From a virus (Duplodnaviria > Caudoviricetes), in the IMG/VR virus record IMGVR_UViG_3300027672_001612, positions 45,776 to 109,775 of that record: a stretch of DNA of 64,000 nt; one strand, written 5' to 3'. The first letter of the stretch is position 1, and the number at the start of each line of letters is the position of its first letter. Below the pieces are notes generated by a model, which saw nothing but the letters and a program-made list of their open reading frames with translations, searched no databases and was not told the origin of the DNA. Positions 10,145-37,537 of the stretch are shown here, piece by piece. A program made the translations under genes and the position numbers.

Positions 10145-12762
10145 TATGCTATACTCAACGAAGTTAGGGAGTCACCAGACTCCAGTTTTATACGCACTAG
10201 TATGTTATTACCAAAACTGTTCGTAGCGTTTTGGTCACCTAGCGTTAGAGTGAATGTATCACTGTTGTAAGTTGTATTGTCTATAATTCTGTCTCCAGAA
10301 GTAAATGCACAACCATCTGATCCGTTACCACCTGCTCCTGTGTTTCCACCTGGAGTACCAGCACCACCATAAGTAGTACCAGCTGATAACCAACCGTTTA
10401 AATTACTTGCGGCATCAATGCTTGTTGCCGGAGCCGCTACAAAGAACCCACTGACCTTACCAGTAAGTGTTACAACAAAGTTAGCCATTGTAGTTCTTCT
10501 GAATGCAAAAGTAAAGTATTGTGCTCCACTTCTACCTGCGTTTAAGTCTGGTCCTGCGGGCAAATATGCTGTGCCACTAAGGTCAGTAACAAAATGCTTA
10601 ATTGTTCCCCACCTATTTACTGCTTCTAGTGTGCCAGCGATTGTTTGTGTTCCTGTCCATGCACTACCTGTGTAATAGTTAGTACTAGAACTAAATGTTG
10701 GATTGTCTGTAGTTGGGAAACCTGTAATACGTTTTCCATCATCATTAAAGCCTGCACCTAAACTGTCTGCAACTGCAATAGCTTCTTCATTAATTCCTGT
10801 ATTGCCGTTCCATGCTTGGATGTATTTTGCATTAAGTTCTGCATAATTTCCGTTACCGTTAACATTAAACATTCTTGTTTTAAGTTGTTCAATACCAATT
10901 CCGCCACCGTTAACATTAATTGTTAAGTTGCCTAATGAATATGCAGTACCAGCCGTTTTACCAGTGTTTACATCTGGAATACCACCTGTTAAGTATGATG
11001 CTCCGCCTTGTATTTGTGCGTATGTTTTATATTGTGTTCCAATTACTGTGCCAGTAGTACCTTCTTGGTTAGTACCGTTTGTAATTTGTAATGGAGTACT
11101 TGATTGAGCGTATGTTTGACCAATCCAATCGTATGCTGTAAGTCCAGCTAATGTTAGTGTAGCATCGTTAGTGTAGTAAGGAACGCCTGATACATATCTT
11201 AATGTGCCGGGAGTTGCTTGAACTAACGTAGCGGCAGATGTATTAACAACTGCTAATGATTCAACATCATCTTTTACAAACTCTAGTGTATTGGTTGATC
11301 CCAATGTATGCTGTAGTTTGTAAGCATGTGATCCTGCTACAATGCCAACTGTACTTTTTGTAATTCTAGCTTTATAACCTTTGTTTAGTCCTGGGCTATA
11401 TATTGAACTATTAAAACTTGTACTAGTTCCGTCTTGTCCAAAAAATTGAAAATCGTCTTCTTCAGTAAGTTGTAATGAAGCATTGGTTCCACTGTCATCA
11501 CTTCCTGTTAGTGTAATAGCTCCGTCTGCCGAACCATCAACTATTGCAGTTAATGTGCCTGCATCACCGTTGTATGTTAATTCTGATAATGTATTTGAAT
11601 TAGTAACAGACCCTGCACTTGCGTTTGTGATTCTTGTTACGCTGTCTCCAGCTGTCAATGTTCCTGATCCAAAGTTATTAGTAAAGCCAGCAGTTAGTCT
11701 AGGTGAACTACCTGAACTGCTCTCACCAAATGATATTGACTTATTACCTAAGTGTTCTGGAGCCGTTGGTGCTGTTGCGTAAACTTTAATTTGGTCTGAA
11801 CTTGTATCTCCAACTTCGCCTGGATCTGCTGTACTATGTGCAGTCTGCGTTAATGTAATTGTATTTCTGCTTGAACCTGTGTCACTACCGTATGTGTGAC
11901 TTGCTCTTGCTTGACCAACATCTCCTGCGGCGCCACTGGCTACTGAATCAGTAGTTCCATCGCCCCAGTTAATTGTGTAAGTACATGTTGCACTAGCTGA
12001 GTTGGTTGTTGTGTTATCTAAGTATAATGTTTCTCCTGCACTAATCTCTCTATTGTTACCACTTAATGCACTACCGCCAGCACTAGTTGTAAATATGTTA
12101 AAGTTTGCATTTGGAGTTGCAGTATATAATGTTATTAAATCTGTTTTAGTTACAGTTGCAAAACTACCTTCGCCTGAACCACTTGTATTTCTTGCTGTGA
12201 TTACTAGGTCATATGGTGAGTTTGAATTATCTGTATAAGTATGACTTGGAGTACTATCTGATGTTGCAGTTGTTGTGTTTCCATCTCCCCAAACTATGTC
12301 ATACTGGTTAGCATTACCAACTACTGAGAGTGTTAGTGTTACTGTTAGTGGATCACCACCTGAACTTACACTAGATGTAGCATCTACACTTTTAACGTAA
12401 GTATTGTTTCTAATGTTTTCCATTGTTTCATTCAATCTATCAATGGATTCTGTAACTGATGTGGAACTAGTTAACGTAGTAACTGCGCCTGGACTAGCCA
12501 AGTCTCCGTCACCGCCTGTTCCTAATGTAATATTATATGCGTTTGTAGTACTAACTGCTAATGCAGTTTCCATCTGTTGTTTACTAACAGCGTCTGTGCC
12601 TATTACACCATCTGCTATTCTAACATTTGCTAGTGTTGTACCATCGTTCGCCATCACCTGCATTGAGCTTGTTGATGCGTTGGCAACCAGTTTAGGTCCT
12701 CTCTTTCCGAATTGTAAGTCTGTGCTTACACCTTTCTGTCCAAATCTATTTTCGTTAGCCAA
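10144..12762 (-). CDS. Large virion protein with PKD/Ig-like domains
   Basis: TTG start with AGGAG; WGDG...SHTY PKD motifs twice; N-terminal FGQKGV..LQFGKRG; late promoter at 12811-12818. Confidence 0.7.
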   Translation of the reverse strand: MANENRFGQKGVSTDLQFGKRGPKLVANASTSSMQVMANDGTTLANVRIADGVIGTDAVSKQQMETALAVSTTNAYNITLGTGGDGDLASPGAVTTLTSSTSVTESIDRLNETMENIRNNTYVKSVDATSSVSSGGDPLTVTLTLSVVGNANQYDIVWGDGNTTTATSDSTPSHTYTDNSNSPYDLVITARNTSGSGEGSFATVTKTDLITLYTATPNANFNIFTTSAGGSALSGNNREISAGETLYLDNTTTNSASATCTYTINWGDGTTDSVASGAAGDVGQARASHTYGSDTGSSRNTITLTQTAHSTADPGEVGDTSSDQIKVYATAPTAPEHLGNKSISFGESSSGSSPRLTAGFTNNFGSGTLTAGDSVTRITNASAGSVTNSNTLSELTYNGDAGTLTAIVDGSADGAITLTGSDDSGTNASLQLTEEDDFQFFGQDGTSTSFNSSIYSPGLNKGYKARITKSTVGIVAGSHAYKLQHTLGSTNTLEFVKDDVESLAVVNTSAATLVQATPGTLRYVSGVPYYTNDATLTLAGLTAYDWIGQTYAQSSTPLQITNGTNQEGTTGTVIGTQYKTYAQIQGGASYLTGGIPDVNTGKTAGTAYSLGNLTINVNGGGIGIEQLKTRMFNVNGNGNYAELNAKYIQAWNGNTGINEEAIAVADSLGAGFNDDGKRITGFPTTDNPTFSSSTNYYTGSAWTGTQTIAGTLEAVNRWGTIKHFVTDLSGTAYLPAGPDLNAGRSGAQYFTFAFRRTTMANFVVTLTGKVSGFFVAAPATSIDAASNLNGWLSAGTTYGGAGTPGGNTGAGGNGSDGCAFTSGDRIIDNTTYNSDTFTLTLGDQNATNSFGNNILVRIKLESGDSLTSLSIA

Positions 12763-31086: not shown

Positions 31087-31225
31087 TAATCCTTCCAGTA
31101 ACTCACTAAAAACTTATTTGAACGATAAATACAACTAGTATTGTAATCAGAACTATTATGATTACGGTGCGATCTATAGATAAAAAATGATTTATTAAAC
31201 AAGTCATCCTTAAGGAGTAACACAA

Positions 31226-34200
31226 ATGGCGAACATTAAAAACTTTGGTATCAAAGGTGTAGCCGCAGATATTCAATTTGGTAAGGGCGGAGGGTTCATG
31301 GTATATGACAAATCCAATAACAAATTCCAAGTTAAAGATTCTGGTAGTAGTTTAGAAGATATTGAATTTGCAACCGTACTGGCGGGTACGTGGGCAGGAA
31401 CGGCAATATCAGTTGCTAAAGGCGGAACAGGATTAACAACTGTTGCAACTGGCAAAATTCTTTACACTACAGGCACCGACACATTTGGTCAAACAGATAT
31501 ATCAGCAACAGGTATTTCACTATTAGGTAGTGCAGATGCGGCGGCTGGTAGAACAGCATTGGGATTAGGCAACGTAGCAACCCAGGCAAACACAGCAGTA
31601 GACATCGACGGTGGTGCTATTGACGGAACAGTAATCGGCGCAAACGCGGCGGCGGCAGGTAGTTTCAGTACTATCAATGCATCAGGAAATATTACTGGCG
31701 CATTAGTTGGCAACGCATCAACAGCCACAACATTAGCAACAGCAAGAACAATTGGTGGAGTATCATTTAATGGTTCTGCGGCAATCAACTTGCCAGGCGT
31801 TAACGCAGTTGGTTCTCAGAATACAACAGGATCAGCGGCATCGTTAACAACTGGAAGAACAGTATCCGCAACTGGCGATATTGCATGGACATCAGCGGCG
31901 TTTGATGGTACTGGTGCAGTAACAGGCGCGGCAACTTTAGCAACAGTTAACAGTGACGTAGGAACAGCAGGTAGTACTACTTCTATTCCAGTTATCACAG
32001 TTAATGCTAAGGGATTAGTAACAGCAGTATCAACGGCTTCAATCGCAACATCATTTAATATTGCGGCTGACACTGGAACTGCTAACGCATTAGACGGTGG
32101 AGAAACACTTTCTATATTAGGTACAACAAACGAAATCGACACAATAGTTACAGCAAATCAAATCCAAGTTGGATTGGTTGCTAACCCAACTATTGGCGGT
32201 AACTTAACTGTTTCTGGAAACTTAACTGTTTCTGGTACTAGAACAGACGTTAACGTAACAAACATGGCTGTAGAAGATTCACTAGTTGCTTATGCTACTG
32301 GTAACTCTTCAGACGCAGTTGATATTGGTTTCTTTGGTAAGTTCAACGACGGATCAAATGATTTAGCAACTGGTTTATTCAGAGATGCGAACGATGGTAA
32401 ATACCACTTGTTCACTAGCTCACAGGAAACTATCTCAGGTAACGTAGTAGACAAAGCGGCAACAGGTTATGCTGTAGCTTCTTTGAAAGCAAATACAGAA
32501 GGAACACATACTGGTGCAGTAATTGGTAACGTAACTGGTGATACATCAGGAAGTGCTGGAACTGTAACAAGTATTGCAAGTCACGTAATTGATTCAGATT
32601 CTATGGCAGGTGCTTCGGCAACTAACGTAGCTTCAGCAGAATCAACTAAAGCATACGTCGACGCTACAGTAGGTGCTATTAGTACAGTACTAAGTGTTGG
32701 CGCAGACAGTGGTTCAGATGACGGAGTTACAGTTGGAACAGACACATTAAACTTTAATGGTACAGCAAATGAAATTGAAACAACAGTTAGCGACAACGCT
32801 ATTACTGTTGGATTAGTTAACTCACCAACAGTAAGTGGTACAATGACAGCGGCAACATTCGCTGGTAACTTAACTGGTGACGTAACTGGTACAGCTTCAT
32901 TGGCAACATTAGCCGCTGATGCAACAACATTAGCAACCGCAAGAGCAATAGGTGGAGTATCGTTTGACGGTTCTGCAGATATTAACTTGCCAGGTGTTAA
33001 TGCCGCAGGTAACCAAGCAACAAGTGGTCAAGCAGGAACAGTAGCAACTATTGCCGCTTTCGTACTTGACGAAGATAACTTTGCAACGAACAGTGCAACT
33101 TTAGTACCTTCACAACAATCTGTTAAAGCATATACTGATGCGGCTATAGCCACAGCAGTTTCGGCTTCAGACTTAGACTTCACAGCAGACAGCGGTGGTG
33201 CTTTAAGTATAGACTTAGATAGTGAAACATTAACTATTGCAGGTGGTACAGGTCTTTCAACTGCTGGTGCTGGTAACGGCGTAACAGTTAGTTTAGACGC
33301 TACGGCAGTAACCGCAGGATCATATGGTAGTACAACTGCTATTCCTGTTATTACAGTAGATGCACAAGGTAGATTGACATCGGCTTCAACAGCCGCTATT
33401 AGTACTGCTTGGACACTTACAGGTGATACTGGAACTCAAACTGTTAACGGTGGAGACACAGTTGACATAGCAGGTGGAACTAATATTACTACAGTAGCTA
33501 GTGCAACTGACACATTGACAGTTAATCTAGATTCTAACGTAACTGGTTTAACATCTTTGGGTGCAACAACAGTAACAGGTACAACAGTAACAGATGGCAC
33601 GTTTAGTGTTAATAGTGGTGCTATAACAGGCGCAACTAGTATTGGTGCAGTTGACTTAGTATTATCCGGTAACTTAACTGTTAACGGTACTACAACAAGT
33701 GTTTCATCAACTAACACTACAATCTCAGATACATTGATTGAATTACAATCAGGACTAGCTGGCGGAAACAGTAGTGATATTGGTATTGTACTAGAACGTG
33801 GTAGTACTGGTGATAACGGCTTTATGGGTTGGGACGAGAGCGAAGACAAATTTGCTTTTGCAACAACTACAGCAACAGGTACAGCCACTGGCGACTTAAC
33901 ACTTGCAGATGCAGGTATTAAAGTTAGTGACGTATTAGCTTCTGGAACTGTTACATTCGCAAGTTTAAGCGATGGAGCAATTACAATAGCATCCTTCCAA
34001 ACTACACTTACAGATAGTGACACTATTGTTCCTACCTCAGGTGCTGTTAAGGATTATGTTGATTCACAAGTAGCCGCAGTAGATGATACTGTCTTAAGAG
34101 CTTCCTTTACAGCTAACTCTTCAGCAAGTTCATTCAACATTGGCGTTATGCCTAACACATCTGGTAGAACTTATACTGGATCAAAACTTACTCTTAAAGT

Positions 34201-34444
34201 TGCTACTGGTTTTACTGGTAACGGCGTTGATGGTATTGTTGTTAACGACGGAAGTAATGACTTAATGGCAGTGGTTCAAAATGATCCAACTGTTACTGGT
34301 CTTTATGTTGTTGATTTAGGCGCAGAAACTATAGCCGGCGGAGCAACTATTAGTTGTTCATTCAAGCAGTCAGACGGAACAACAGCTTCCGTACCAACTG
34401 CTGGTGCGGTAACGGCGACTGTTGAATATCAGTTCTTTACATAA
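31226..34444 (+). CDS. Long fibre-like virion protein with internal duplications
   Basis: ATTLATAR.IGGVSF.GSA.INLPGVN twice; GSTT.IPVITV.A.G twice; late promoter at 31124; terminator follows. Confidence 0.8.
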   Translation: MANIKNFGIKGVAADIQFGKGGGFMVYDKSNNKFQVKDSGSSLEDIEFATVLAGTWAGTAISVAKGGTGLTTVATGKILYTTGTDTFGQTDISATGISLLGSADAAAGRTALGLGNVATQANTAVDIDGGAIDGTVIGANAAAAGSFSTINASGNITGALVGNASTATTLATARTIGGVSFNGSAAINLPGVNAVGSQNTTGSAASLTTGRTVSATGDIAWTSAAFDGTGAVTGAATLATVNSDVGTAGSTTSIPVITVNAKGLVTAVSTASIATSFNIAADTGTANALDGGETLSILGTTNEIDTIVTANQIQVGLVANPTIGGNLTVSGNLTVSGTRTDVNVTNMAVEDSLVAYATGNSSDAVDIGFFGKFNDGSNDLATGLFRDANDGKYHLFTSSQETISGNVVDKAATGYAVASLKANTEGTHTGAVIGNVTGDTSGSAGTVTSIASHVIDSDSMAGASATNVASAESTKAYVDATVGAISTVLSVGADSGSDDGVTVGTDTLNFNGTANEIETTVSDNAITVGLVNSPTVSGTMTAATFAGNLTGDVTGTASLATLAADATTLATARAIGGVSFDGSADINLPGVNAAGNQATSGQAGTVATIAAFVLDEDNFATNSATLVPSQQSVKAYTDAAIATAVSASDLDFTADSGGALSIDLDSETLTIAGGTGLSTAGAGNGVTVSLDATAVTAGSYGSTTAIPVITVDAQGRLTSASTAAISTAWTLTGDTGTQTVNGGDTVDIAGGTNITTVASATDTLTVNLDSNVTGLTSLGATTVTGTTVTDGTFSVNSGAITGATSIGAVDLVLSGNLTVNGTTTSVSSTNTTISDTLIELQSGLAGGNSSDIGIVLERGSTGDNGFMGWDESEDKFAFATTTATGTATGDLTLADAGIKVSDVLASGTVTFASLSDGAITIASFQTTLTDSDTIVPTSGAVKDYVDSQVAAVDDTVLRASFTANSSASSFNIGVMPNTSGRTYTGSKLTLKVATGFTGNGVDGIVVNDGSNDLMAVVQNDPTVTGLYVVDLGAETIAGGATISCSFKQSDGTTASVPTAGAVTATVEYQFFT

Positions 34445-34466
34445 GAAGTAGATAGAGAAACAAATT

Positions 34467-34494
34467 AAAAGCACACTTAGGTGTGCTTTTTTTT
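34467..34494 (+). terminator. Intrinsic terminator
   Basis: AAAAGCACAC-TTAG-GTGTGCTTTTTTTT. Confidence 0.9.
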
Positions 34495-34538
34495 GGATAA
34501 AACTTGACATCAAGCAGAAATAGTCGTATACTATACGC

Positions 34539-34841
34539 ATGACTAAAGACAAAGACGGCGACGGTAACGAGCCAATAGACAACGTAGTAAAGTTTCCTTC
34601 AAAACCAAAGAAGGCGGACAACGACACTCATTACGAAATTACTATTGAGAGTTTTAGCCCTGAAGAGTTACACACCAGAATGTCAGATATCGACGATTCA
34701 TACGAAGCATGTTTTCACTATGCGAAAGCAATTGAATACACCATGCATAATTTCACCACAGACCTAGACCTAAACCAGCTTCAGGCCCTAGAAATCAAGT
34801 TAAAAGAGATATTTTTGGAGTTTGCTCCAGAAAAAGGTTGA
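34539..34841 (+). CDS. Hypothetical protein (leaderless)
   Basis: TTGACA 34504-17-TATACT; ATG 7 nt after the -10. Confidence 0.6.
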   Translation: MTKDKDGDGNEPIDNVVKFPSKPKKADNDTHYEITIESFSPEELHTRMSDIDDSYEACFHYAKAIEYTMHNFTTDLDLNQLQALEIKLKEIFLEFAPEKG

Positions 34842-34866
34842 CATTGGTACCGGATTTTAGTATAAT
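34838..34866 (+). promoter_or_regulatory. Consensus sigma70 early promoter
   Basis: AAAGG-TTGACA-17-TATAAT. Confidence 0.85.
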
Positions 34867-34913
34867 ATATGCATAGGTTGAGAAAACAAACATACATTTC
34901 GTAGGAGTAATAT

Positions 34914-36008
34914 ATGGAAACATTAACAGTAAGACCCAGTCAGACAAAGAACATTGTAAACAGAGCCTTTTTGGCGAAGAGACCAATATTCATGTGGGGT
35001 GCACCAGGAATTGGTAAATCTGAACTAATAGAGGGTATTGTAAAGGACATGCCCGGTAACAATTTAATGATTGATATGCGTCTAGCATTAATGGAGCCAA
35101 CTGACCTTAGAGGTTATCCGTTCCGTAATGCAGAAACAAATCAAATGGAGTGGGCGCCACCGGCAGACCTTCCTAGCATGGAGCAGTCAGAACTGTACGA
35201 CACGATTGTATTGTTCTTAGATGAGTTGAACTCAGCTCCTCCAAGTGTACAAGCGGCGGCATACCAGTTAGTCCTTAATGGTCGAATTGGTCAGTACGTT
35301 ATGCCAAGCAATGTAAGAATTGTAGCGGCTGGTAACAGAGAGACTGATAGAGGTGTTACTTATAGAATGCCTAGTCCGTTAGCAAACAGATTCCGTCATA
35401 TTAACATGGACATTAACTTCGAAGATTGGAGTGTTTGGGCTGTTAATAATAAGATACACCAAGATGTTGTTGGGTACTTAACATACAGTAAAGCAGATTT
35501 ATTTGACTTTGATCCTAAGACATCAAGTCAGTCATTTGCTACACCACGTAGTTGGTCTTTCGTAAGCGAAATACTAGAAACTGAAGGGTTTGAGTTTGCT
35601 CCTGACTTTGAGCAGAAGGCAGAAATTGCTGGAGCAGTTGGAGAAGGCATGGCTATTAAGTTTTGTGAACATAGAAAGGTTGCTTCAAAGCTACCTAACC
35701 CAGAAGATGTATTAACTGGTAAAGTTAAGACCCTTAAGGTAAAAGAGAAGTCAGCTCAGTACTCATTCGCAATTGGATTATGCTACGAACTAGCCGCTCT
35801 TAATAAAGCGGACGACGAAGCGGCATTTGACAAAGGTGTTGATTACTTCTTTGACTTTATAATGGAGAACTTTGAACCTGAGTTGGTTATCTTTAGTGCT
35901 AAGAGTGTTCTTAGTGACCACGACATAGATATTAAGCCTAGAAAACTCCAAGGCAAGAAGGAGTTTAAGGAACGGTACTGGAAGTACTTGTTCCCCGCTA
36001 CGGTATAG
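34914..36008 (+). CDS. MoxR-type AAA+ ATPase
   Basis: WGAPGIGKS, DLRGYP, LFLDELN, VAAGN, LANRF, TPRSW. Confidence 0.9.
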   Translation: METLTVRPSQTKNIVNRAFLAKRPIFMWGAPGIGKSELIEGIVKDMPGNNLMIDMRLALMEPTDLRGYPFRNAETNQMEWAPPADLPSMEQSELYDTIVLFLDELNSAPPSVQAAAYQLVLNGRIGQYVMPSNVRIVAAGNRETDRGVTYRMPSPLANRFRHINMDINFEDWSVWAVNNKIHQDVVGYLTYSKADLFDFDPKTSSQSFATPRSWSFVSEILETEGFEFAPDFEQKAEIAGAVGEGMAIKFCEHRKVASKLPNPEDVLTGKVKTLKVKEKSAQYSFAIGLCYELAALNKADDEAAFDKGVDYFFDFIMENFEPELVIFSAKSVLSDHDIDIKPRKLQGKKEFKERYWKYLFPATV

Positions 36009-36015
36009 GACAAAA

Positions 36016-36097
36016 AAAACTGTTGCTGTATCCTACAACGGTACTTGGTTATACTCGTACCGTACGTTACTCCTACAACCTAACAGCAAAAAGTTTT
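36016..36097 (+). ncRNA. Candidate 3'UTR-derived sRNA with two anti-SD motifs
   Basis: Nested stems framing TCCTACAAC at 36031 and 36071. Confidence 0.55.
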
Positions 36098-36125
36098 ACC
36101 CTGCTCACAAGGCGGGGTTTTTTTT
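36098..36125 (+). terminator. Intrinsic terminator
   Basis: CCCTGCT-CACAA-GGCGGGG followed by T8. Confidence 0.8.
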
Positions 36126-36135
36126 GATTAAAAGG

Positions 36136-36164
36136 TTGACTATGGGGTACTTTGGTAGTATAAT
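36136..36164 (+). promoter_or_regulatory. Sigma70 early promoter
   Basis: AAAGG-TTGACT-17-TATAAT-AGTTGTATATTAAG, same extended context as 42003. Confidence 0.85.
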
Positions 36165-36199
36165 AGTTGTATATTAAGTAGAAATTGTAGGAGGTTTTT

Positions 36200-37537
36200 A
36201 TGTCATTTAAAACAGATACATTAGCAGTGAAAGGACCAAAGATAACAGGAACACCAAGCGATACAGCTCACAAGGCTATTGCTACTATTCCTGAATCCAA
36301 GCTCACAGATAAAGAAGTTGAAGATAGACTTATATCAACTCGTATTAACATGTTACTACAATGTCCGTTCTACGGAAACTTAGCATGTCGTTTAGAATTT
36401 AAAGACGCTAGTGAATGGTGTCCAACTGCCGCAACAGACGGCAAGTACTTCTACTACAATAAAGATTTTATATCAGCACTAACTATTCCAAACTTAGTTT
36501 TCCTTTGGGGACACGAAGTAGAGCATTGTGTTTACGATCACTTTGGTAGACGAGGTGACCGTAATCCAATGCTTTGGAACATTGCTAATGACTATGTAGT
36601 AAACATGGATTTAGTAGAAGGTAACATTGGTGAGAGAATTACACTAGTTGAGATACTGTTTGATTACAAGTATCGTAACTGGATGAGTGAAGAAGTATAT
36701 GCTGACTTGTTCAAGCAAATGGAAGAAGACGGCAAAGATTTTGAAGATGGAACTACACTTGATGTTCACTTAGATATGGAAGATGGTGAAGACGAAGGTA
36801 GTGGTCCAGGTATGGAAGGTAACGTTAATGACGGAACCAAAGGTCCAGTAAGATATACAGAAGACGAAAAACGTAGTATTAAAGAAGCATTTAAGAATGC
36901 TACGGTACAGGCGGCACGTTCGGCTGGCGCTGGTAACTTACCTAGTGGCATTAAACGTCTTGTAGATGATCTAATTAATCCACAACTTAGTTGGAAAGAG
37001 TTACTACCACAGCAAATCCAAAGTGTAATGAGAAGTGACTATAGTTACAATCAGTGTTCACGTAAAGGAATGGACAGTGGCATTTGGTTGCCAGGCATGG
37101 ACAGAGAAGAGACTATAGATATCGCAGTTGGTATTGACACATCAGGATCAATGAGCGATGAGATGCTTAGAGATATCCTTAGCGAAACAAAAGGTGTTAT
37201 GGATCAATACAGCGACTTCCGTATACACTTGTTCTGCTTTGATACTGAAGTACATAATCCACAAGTGTTCACTGAGCATAACATGGAAGAGTTTATGGAG
37301 TACGAGCCAGGCGGCGGCGGCGGTACTGACTTTGATTGTTGTTTCGATTGGTTCAAAGAAGAAGGCATAGTGCCTAAGAAGTTCGTAATGTTTACAGATG
37401 GTTACCCTTGGAACAGTTGGGGCGATGAGAACTACTGTGATACATTGTTTATTGTGCATGGCGGAGGCTATGGCGGGCAGACACCTGTTGCACCTTTCGG
37501 CATAACTGTACCTTACAATAGAGATGAAGTAGCATGA
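36200..37537 (+). CDS. Metallopeptidase-like plus vWA protein (DUF2201-type), MoxR partner
   Basis: TAATDG, HEVEH (HExxH), WNIAND, DTSGS MIDAS, GGGGTDF, FTDG. Confidence 0.88.
   Translation: MSFKTDTLAVKGPKITGTPSDTAHKAIATIPESKLTDKEVEDRLISTRINMLLQCPFYGNLACRLEFKDASEWCPTAATDGKYFYYNKDFISALTIPNLVFLWGHEVEHCVYDHFGRRGDRNPMLWNIANDYVVNMDLVEGNIGERITLVEILFDYKYRNWMSEEVYADLFKQMEEDGKDFEDGTTLDVHLDMEDGEDEGSGPGMEGNVNDGTKGPVRYTEDEKRSIKEAFKNATVQAARSAGAGNLPSGIKRLVDDLINPQLSWKELLPQQIQSVMRSDYSYNQCSRKGMDSGIWLPGMDREETIDIAVGIDTSGSMSDEMLRDILSETKGVMDQYSDFRIHLFCFDTEVHNPQVFTEHNMEEFMEYEPGGGGGTDFDCCFDWFKEEGIVPKKFVMFTDGYPWNSWGDENYCDTLFIVHGGGYGGQTPVAPFGITVPYNRDEVA

Follow-up and report, generated by a model that had tools for sequence, protein, structure and literature searches.

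A Conserved, Covarying RNA Hairpin at the 3′ End of a MoxR-Like ATPase Gene of Marine Jumbo Phages, with Predicted Pairing to the Ribosome-Binding Sites of the ATPase and Its vWA Partner

The ATPase–vWA Locus and Its Transcription Units

The window, as we call the whole 64,000-nt stretch of DNA analyzed here, comes from an IMG/VR virus record of 110 kb, and the stretch of interest within it (36016–36125) occurs in many marine metagenomes. On its plus strand, an ORF of 364 aa (34914–36008) encodes a MoxR-like AAA+ ATPase (Pfam AAA_5, E = 2.5e-5) and is followed by the 445-aa ORF of a vWA-like partner protein (36200–37537; Pfam DUF2201_N, E = 7.5e-38, and DUF2201, VWA-like domain). The ATPase unit is monocistronic, with its own sigma-70-type promoter (34838–34866, TTGACA-17-TATAAT, 12/12 consensus matches), an equivalent of which also lies upstream of the ATPase in relatives, and its own intrinsic terminator (36098–36126), in which an 8-bp stem (36098–36118) with five G-C pairs is followed by a T-run. 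The promoter of the vWA-partner gene (36136–36164, TTGACT-17-TATAAT, 11/12 consensus matches) begins ten bases past this terminator, making the vWA gene the first of the next unit. The ATPase leader, about 45 nt long, carries a Shine–Dalgarno (SD) region, GTAGGAGTAA (34901–34910), and near its 5′ end the site TAGGTTG (34874–34880), which, for a transcription start 7 nt downstream of the −10 hexamer, would occupy transcript positions of about +2 to +8. For the vWA partner, the SD region is TTGTAGGAG (36185–36193). Gene calls and start codons come from a simple custom caller and transcript starts were placed from −10 hexamers; transcript starts, gene starts, and all energies given here are predictions.

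Contigs that carry relatives of the ATPase reach ~340 kb, hence the family includes jumbo phages. The closest cultured relative of the ATPase is that of PA5oct (49.6% identity), and in the PA5oct-like Pseudomonas phages we found neither the RNA element described below nor the matching ribosome-binding site (RBS). Marine metatranscriptome assemblies contain contigs of the ATPase gene in which the ORF is covered. One of these, identical to the window over 34901–35163, starts exactly at the SD region (34901), and another, from a ~97%-identical relative and corresponding to 35588–36070, extends from the ORF beyond the stop codon to an end within the loop of the element; contig ends are not RNA ends, however, and uncovered parts and the absent short-RNA signal weigh neither way. 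A promoter scan returned no promoter-like site within the 3′ end of the ATPase ORF. Farther upstream, between a 1072-aa ORF and a small ORF (34539–34841), lies a symmetric A4-stem-T4+ hairpin (34467–34490) that scores as a terminator on both strands; the small ORF has its own promoter (34504–34532) and a nearly leaderless ATG.

Architecture of the Hairpin in the Window

Immediately before the ATPase terminator, the plus strand forms a large hairpin whose outer stem pairs AAAACTGTTGCTGT (5′ arm, 36016–36029) with ACAGCAAAAAGTTTT (3′ arm, 36083–36097), as indicated both by the fold and by stem covariation in relatives. Within it, the first part of the loop (36030–36039) contains the first CCUAC motif, AUCCUACAAC, whose best partner is the SD region of the vWA gene (8 bp, −10.6 kcal/mol) and of which UAUCCUACA is kept across the window's clade. 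An inner hairpin (36038–36063), formed by pairing of 36038–36044 with 36057–36063, is a lineage-specific insertion in the loop. The second part (36064–36082) holds the conserved anti-SD core, in which UUACUCCUAC is complementary to the ATPase SD region, CUCCUACAA to that of the vWA gene, and CAACCUA to the 5′ end of the ATPase leader; GTTACTCC of this segment is invariant in alignment A1. The element was first pointed out in an annotation made from the letters of the window alone (herein the first-pass annotation), and the stems, motif copies, and terminator described there are all present. So is the exact 10-bp complementarity that it reported between TTACTCCTAC (36067–36076) and the ATPase RBS GTAGGAGTAA, and TTGTAGGAG, which it had listed at the RBS of the vWA gene and at those of the minus-strand genes starting at 12762 and 47867, occurs at all three. 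The twin copies of TCCTACAAC (36031 and 36071) are indeed spaced 40 nt apart in the window, which has three copies of this 9-mer in all (0.59 expected), but this spacing and the exact 9-mer twin are confined to the window and its nearest relative.

The plus-strand fold has a free energy of −33.6 kcal/mol (z = −3.6) that was equaled by none of 200 shuffled sequences, and the fold of the minus strand is weaker (z = −2.25). The element has an A-rich single-stranded segment ahead of its stem and a U-tailed terminator behind it, in agreement with the usual anatomy of small RNAs derived from 3′UTRs. A scan of the window and five relatives against Rfam 15 returned no family at the gathering threshold, the best sub-threshold matches being terminator-like only (for instance Trp_leader, 21 bits against a threshold of 41), and ARAGORN detected no tRNA or tmRNA genes in the window. 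Scanning the 110-kb genome for other hairpins with large, G-poor loops yielded only antisense stretches of coding regions, none with a terminator, under a filter that missed the window's own element owing to its inner hairpin.

Conservation, Covariation, and the Strand of the RNA

Loci with relatives of the ATPase were gathered in sets of 12 and then 80, and 23 more were added through a 17-nt word of the loop. Across contigs of related marine phages, ~45 distinct variants of the sequence have the element behind the stop codon of the ATPase gene. It is found with every ATPase of one clade (40 distinct proteins, 54–99% identical to that of the window; support 98/91) and in a second element-bearing clade (L123–L142) at 54% identity, which was left out of the ATPase tree. 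All share a stem of 9–16 bp, a G-poor loop of 22–29 nt, and a GC-rich terminator; relatives of the ATPase outside the clade have a plain terminator only, or none. Each genome fragment has a single copy, always at the ATPase. The first-pass annotation had described an element of the spacer between the ATPase and vWA genes, and in the window that is its position; elsewhere it is linked to the 3′ end of the ATPase gene, staying directly downstream where other genes intervene before the vWA gene.

Because MAFFT misaligned the 3′ arms of the element, we worked instead with an alignment fitted to a covariance model, which was built from seven sequences; the aligned set comprises 25 distinct sequences from the larger clade only. 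In each of 27 loci the model had a single match, and loci lacking the element gave none. All ten stem pairs have changed on both sides among the 25 distinct sequences, 90.4% of cells pair compared with 34–46% when the partners are slid by 1–3 columns, and the covariation score is 0.669 compared with 0.05–0.16 in the slid controls. An alignment fitted in this way favors the structure of its model, and the slid controls and a by-eye table of the stem arms agree with it; the stems of the window's own clade were compared by eye, outside the model-fitted alignment. Between variants, the stem sequence is wholly different with pairing retained. Together with the fold statistics of the window, the covariation bears out the structured RNA of the first-pass annotation.

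The loop is conserved as well. It is G-poor, with an invariant UACUCC core, usually as GUUACUCC(C/U)UAC, that is flanked by CCUAC-type repeats. The inner hairpin after the first CCUAC is restricted to the window, L014, and L015; L017 and L021 have a different hairpin at another position, where it splits the first CCUAC, and most relatives have none. In other relatives the CCUAC motifs stand ~14 nt apart, since the inner hairpin is a lineage-specific insertion. As judged by these comparisons, marine jumbo phages possess a plus-strand RNA motif that is conserved, covaries, and is absent from current catalogs.

The assignment to the plus strand follows from the stem cells, among which G·U pairs outnumber A·C combinations by 13 to 2. 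This count bears directly on a reading raised in the first-pass annotation, that a minus-strand RNA with GUAGGA sites sequesters a GGA-binding repressor such as CsrA/RsmA. The window does offer GUAGGAG and GUAGGAU on that strand, within a big hairpin followed by U8. A minus-strand RNA would, however, contain 13 A·C mismatch cells and only two G·U pairs, its fold is the weaker one, and its U-run shrinks in relatives to 4–5 nt that are part of the stem, whereas a strong U-tract terminator stands on the plus strand in every relative. The sole minus-strand promoter match across 34400–36400 (9/12) is no better than those in shuffled sequence, and the loop of the largest clade, read on the minus strand, retains at most one GGA. 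We therefore regard a CsrA decoy as extremely improbable. A sequestering RNA of the CsrB/RsmZ type was likewise rejected: GGA occurs on the minus strand only, and the main clade does not preserve the twin GGA.

Much the same evidence speaks against the element at the level of DNA. Exact 10-bp inverted repeats (GTAGGAGTAA and TTACTCCTAC) bracket the ATPase ORF, and could in principle serve a gene-flipping invertase or a DNA-binding protein; invertible switches with short repeats are known, those of the fim switch being 9 bp. Yet the orientation is the same in all ~60 contigs, with no inversion joints seen, and the downstream repeat forms part of a hairpin in which stem covariation includes G·U pairs, as is typical of RNA. 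The hairpin insertions at differing positions of the loop, moreover, freely alter DNA spacing, as would be tolerable for a structured RNA but not for a spaced DNA site. A DNA-level function consequently strikes us as barely credible.

A structural module at the 3′ end of the transcript, acting with the terminator either as a stabilizer that withstands 3′ exonucleases or as an element of termination efficiency or insulation between two strong transcription units, could do without a sequence-specific target altogether. Such a role would suit an element that always directly precedes a strong terminator between convergent or tandem units, and stable 3′ hairpins do stabilize mRNAs. A stabilizer, however, needs a stem, not a near-invariant loop on a stem whose sequence has fully turned over, and the complementarity of that loop to the RBS of both the ATPase and the vWA gene would go unexplained. 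On balance, we judge a purely structural role to be quite unlikely.

Complementarity of the Loop to the ATPase Leader

In the window, loop UUACUCCUAC could form ten contiguous base pairs with GUAGGAGUAA in the SD region of its own ATPase, and UAGGUUG, at the predicted 5′ end of the leader, is the complement of the adjoining loop CAACCUA (36076–36082); RNAduplex predicts a single duplex through both sites, at −18.5 to −18.8 kcal/mol. Among 82 genes of the window, the ATPase start region ranks first as a target of the loop. In 36 related loci, it took the top local rank 24 times (3.4 expected) and always fell among the first three. In five genome fragments with 78–156 genes, the ATPase comes second in four by raw duplex energy, and its accessibility-corrected ranks are 1/156, 3/96, 1/78, 5/102, and 44/132, the last belonging to the L037 to L039 lineage. 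CU-rich loops score well against any strong SD sequence, and unrelated genes equal or better the ATPase in each larger fragment; whenever the ATPase is outranked there, the winning gene is a different one.

These ranks refer to translation start regions, to which the tests were limited because a scan of the whole window with RNAduplex in 40-nt tiles was nondiscriminating, many coding sites reaching about −19 kcal/mol. Ranks from RNAcofold were erratic since pairing of the loop is a pseudoknot, which this program cannot represent, and the stem must open.

Averaged over phages, the duplex energy of a loop with its own ATPase leader is −17.5 kcal/mol and that with the leader of another element-bearing phage −16.0 kcal/mol, compared with −7.0 kcal/mol for leaders of element-lacking ATPases and −8.0 kcal/mol for shuffled leaders. 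The gap between own and cross pairings is modest (1.5–1.7 kcal/mol), with permutation counts inflated by relatedness. The ATPase relatives that lack the element thus also lack complementarity to the loop, their leaders scoring at random level. GGAGTAA is present in the RBS of 26 of the 37 element-bearing ATPases as opposed to 14 of 418 other genes. The flank UAA(C/U) of this RBS lengthens the pairing with the loop to 8–10 bp and, as judged by eye against what we take to be the canonical 3′ end of 16S rRNA, adds nothing to pairing with the ribosome. L055 displays a compensatory change, in which loop UACUACUCCU and RBS AGGAGUAGUA replace the usual GUUACUCC and GGAGUAAC by two double changes. The site at the 5′ end of the leader has been reworded by clade, leader and loop together (UAGGUUG/CAACCUA, GUAGGUU/AACCUAC, ACAUAGGU/ACCUAUGU, AGUUAGG/CCUAACU, and UGUAGGU/ACCUACA), and is absent from the L123–L142 clade. 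In the ATPase tree, which excludes L123–L142, the element-bearing ATPases form one clade, so that the association of the element with a complementary RBS represents a single evolutionary event.

These comparisons also bear on the possibility that the loop is a protein platform controlling the decay or localization of the ATPase mRNA, bound by a phage or host RNA-binding protein, ribosomal protein S1, or a KH- or CSD-type pyrimidine binder, with the SD complementarity a by-product of CU-richness. A strongly conserved, G-poor loop with repeated CCUAC and CUCC words could well be a repeated single-strand site, and several unrelated start regions do match the score of the ATPase in the larger genome fragments. 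Left unexplained, however, would be the UAA(C/U) flank, which is not part of the SD sequence and still extends the pairing, the joint change of loop and RBS in L055, and the random-level scores of the leaders of element-lacking ATPases. We consider a protein platform unlikely for these reasons.

The vWA Partner as a Second Predicted Target

With the ATPase set aside, the start region of the vWA gene leads the predicted targets in 13 of 29 loci (3.1 expected) and is first or second in 22 of 29 (6.2 expected), counts that take in loci with other genes between the ATPase and vWA genes. In the window, the two parts of the loop divide these partners, part 1 pairing best with the vWA SD region and part 2 with the ATPase leader. 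The L123–L142 clade has a loop with a single motif, and there the vWA start region (UUGUAGGAG against CUCCUACAA) ranks first in 10 of 11 loci, the ATPase being second in eight, first in one, and third in two. Since a strong terminator precedes the vWA gene's own promoter, targeting this gene requires either pairing in trans or read-through of the terminator.

The first-pass annotation had also envisaged repression of GTAGGAG-type RBSs at large. The bare 7-mer GTAGGAG shows no enrichment across the window, with 10 occurrences found and 5.7 expected; the case for a broad "GTAGGAG regulon" is weak, the consistent predicted targets of the loop being the ATPase and vWA genes only. Its other proposal was a 3′UTR-derived small RNA that balances ATPase and vWA levels; a covarying plus-strand RNA whose complementarity to these RBSs extends across deep clades fits a 3′UTR element that would repress or balance the two genes, whether or not a separate small RNA is released.

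A Proposed Model for Anti-SD Control from the 3′UTR

We hypothesize that the element most likely exerts anti-SD control over the MoxR-like ATPase and its vWA partner, and it is with moderate confidence that we propose, from the comparative evidence above, a 3′UTR regulator that would present its anti-SD sequence in a loop and act on the translation of both genes. The stable hairpin would hold a G-poor loop of ~25 nt open, directly before the Rho-independent terminator, and the loop core, (G)UUACUCC(U)AC, would pair with the SD region in the leader of its own ATPase message, joined in several clades by neighboring loop nucleotides that could pair with the first nucleotides of the leader. The overlapping CUCCUACAA and the first copy of CCUAC would pair with the SD region of the mRNA of the vWA partner. 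By occupying these sites, the loop would keep 30S subunits from binding, and the duplex might be a substrate for nucleases. As the element is made last, the ATPase message could be translatable during transcription and be shut down upon its completion or upon the accumulation of stable 3′ fragments, which would limit ATPase output and tie together the outputs of the two partner proteins. We infer that the pairing takes place in the cell and leads to repression rather than stabilization, and that it acts either in cis, by 5′–3′ pairing within one molecule, or in trans, through a 3′UTR fragment or the whole mRNA.

A more far-reaching version of this model, and one that we put forward as a long shot, is that the ATPase 3′UTR might form an mRNA–mRNA bridge, its two seeds holding the vWA mRNA and the ATPase leader simultaneously. 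The first CCUAC copy or CUCCUACAA would serve as the seed for the vWA mRNA, and UUACUCCUAC with CAACCUA as that for the ATPase leader. Were this the case, the messages of a MoxR–vWA chaperone pair would be repressed, released, or translated together, and the bridge would be a dedicated viral RNA device for the stoichiometry or colocalized synthesis of a two-protein machine.

Comparison with Known Regulatory RNAs

The closest parallel to anti-SD control of the ATPase is the icaR mRNA of Staphylococcus aureus, in which the 3′UTR motif UCCCCUG pairs with the mRNA's own SD sequence, blocking formation of the initiation complex and yielding a substrate for RNase III (PMC3868564). Both have a pyrimidine-rich anti-SD motif in the mRNA's own 3′UTR (here at 36064–36082, between the stop codon at 36008 and the terminator at 36098) that is complementary to the SD sequence of that mRNA, a complementarity which in the phages exceeds that to other genes (10 bp in the window and the top local rank in two-thirds of the loci, as given above). 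However, icaR is a bacterial gene with a 3′UTR of more than 100 nt, whereas the element described here belongs to lytic marine jumbo phages. Unlike in icaR, a covarying hairpin directly upstream of the terminator presents the motif in its large loop, and some clades add a second site against the 5′ end of the mRNA, along with a conserved target in the partner gene. The sequences are unrelated, and the icaR pairing is experimental whereas that of the phage element is predicted.

CpxQ, SroC, and DapZ are examples of small RNAs derived from 3′UTRs. Those of Gram-negative bacteria, which share the terminator of their parental mRNA, have been reviewed together with a mention of RNAIII of S. aureus (PMC7821165). 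The phage element resembles them in having a conserved seed just upstream of the parental intrinsic terminator and U-tail, an A/U-rich single strand before the hairpin that could be a processing site, and predicted targets that are translation start regions, including that of the vWA gene on another transcript. It differs in that such small RNAs generally target the mRNAs of other genes, whereas the best conserved predicted targets here are the parental mRNA and its functional partner.

In the hok mRNA of plasmid R1, fbi–tac pairing between the 5′ and 3′ ends keeps the full-length message translationally inert. Pairing of the 3′ end of a full-length mRNA with its 5′ end is likewise predicted here, but hok belongs to a toxin–antitoxin system in which 3′ processing releases the pairing, and it has neither a loop-presented anti-SD sequence nor a target in a partner gene. 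The C-rich or UCCC-loop regulators of S. aureus use pyrimidine-rich motifs in hairpin loops to pair with SD sequences; unlike the phage element, they are dedicated or dual-function RNAs with many targets, occur in other hosts, and share no sequence or structural homology with it. In phage lambda, the sib hairpin downstream of int is cleaved by RNase III and triggers 3′–5′ decay. It is comparable as a phage 3′ element exerting post-transcriptional control of the upstream gene (predicted in our case), but lacks an anti-SD loop and leader pairing. As analogies, then, fbi–tac of hok, RNAIII-type loops, and lambda sib are more distant than icaR.

Very few worked examples of pairing between a 3′UTR and its own RBS exist in bacteria, icaR being the paradigm, and our literature search on anti-SD elements in phage 3′UTRs found only bacterial precedents; as far as the Rfam and literature searches reached, none has been described for a lytic phage. 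Comparative support for the phage element is unusually good, coming from a deep family of marine jumbo phages in which the stem has turned over with pairing kept, the loop is near-frozen, and the RBS flank matches it. With an element of 110 nt and a leader of 45 nt, the system is a compact and easily testable model that could show self-limited translation of a message and coupling of a MoxR ATPase with a vWA protein at the level of RNA. It also provides a new RNA motif for the annotation of marine viral metagenomes.

Further Sites Complementary to the Loop

Several other sites at these loci are complementary to the loop. In L024 (4105–4125), L025, L031, L035, L036, L040, and L050, an SD-like GGGAG(T/A) word (TAAGGGAG...) lies right after the ATPase stop codon, within the next ~15 nt, and complements the loop core (−12 to −16 kcal/mol), an energy equaled in L025, L031, and L035/36 by no more than 2 of 100 shuffles. 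The site is not universal, and the window has a weak counterpart, TAGGA (36006–36010). It could be a decoy that masks the loop until the terminating ribosome has passed, or the remnant of a lost downstream RBS.

The promoters of these phages have an extended −35 element of the form (A)GGTTGAC, seen in the window at 36132–36141 and past the terminator in L125 and L128. The −35 word, TAGGTTG or GTAGGTTG, is complementary to loop CAACCTA(C) and would be present in RNA only upon read-through of the terminator.

Upstream of the ATPase, the RBS (31214–31221) of the 1072-aa ORF (31226–34444), for which Pfam gave no match, contains TTAAGGAGTAAC, a 9-nt complement of loop GUUACUCCU, and is among the top five accessibility-corrected targets predicted in the genome fragment. 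In L055 (1125–1173 and 4215–4262) and L056 (1855–1903), other promoter-proximal genes have leaders nearly like that of the ATPase (GTGTAGGTTAACAAAAC...GGAGTAG), which score equally to the ATPase leader against the loop; the targets of the loop there may be a small group of messages with a common leader cassette. Finally, a gene of 256 aa, located ~2.7 kb downstream of the ATPase, recurs as the third-best predicted target in the L123–L142 clade, with GAGTAGGAGTT or TAGGTAGGAGTA as its RBS (L125, 10830–10880; equivalents in L123, L126, L127, L133, L139, and L140).
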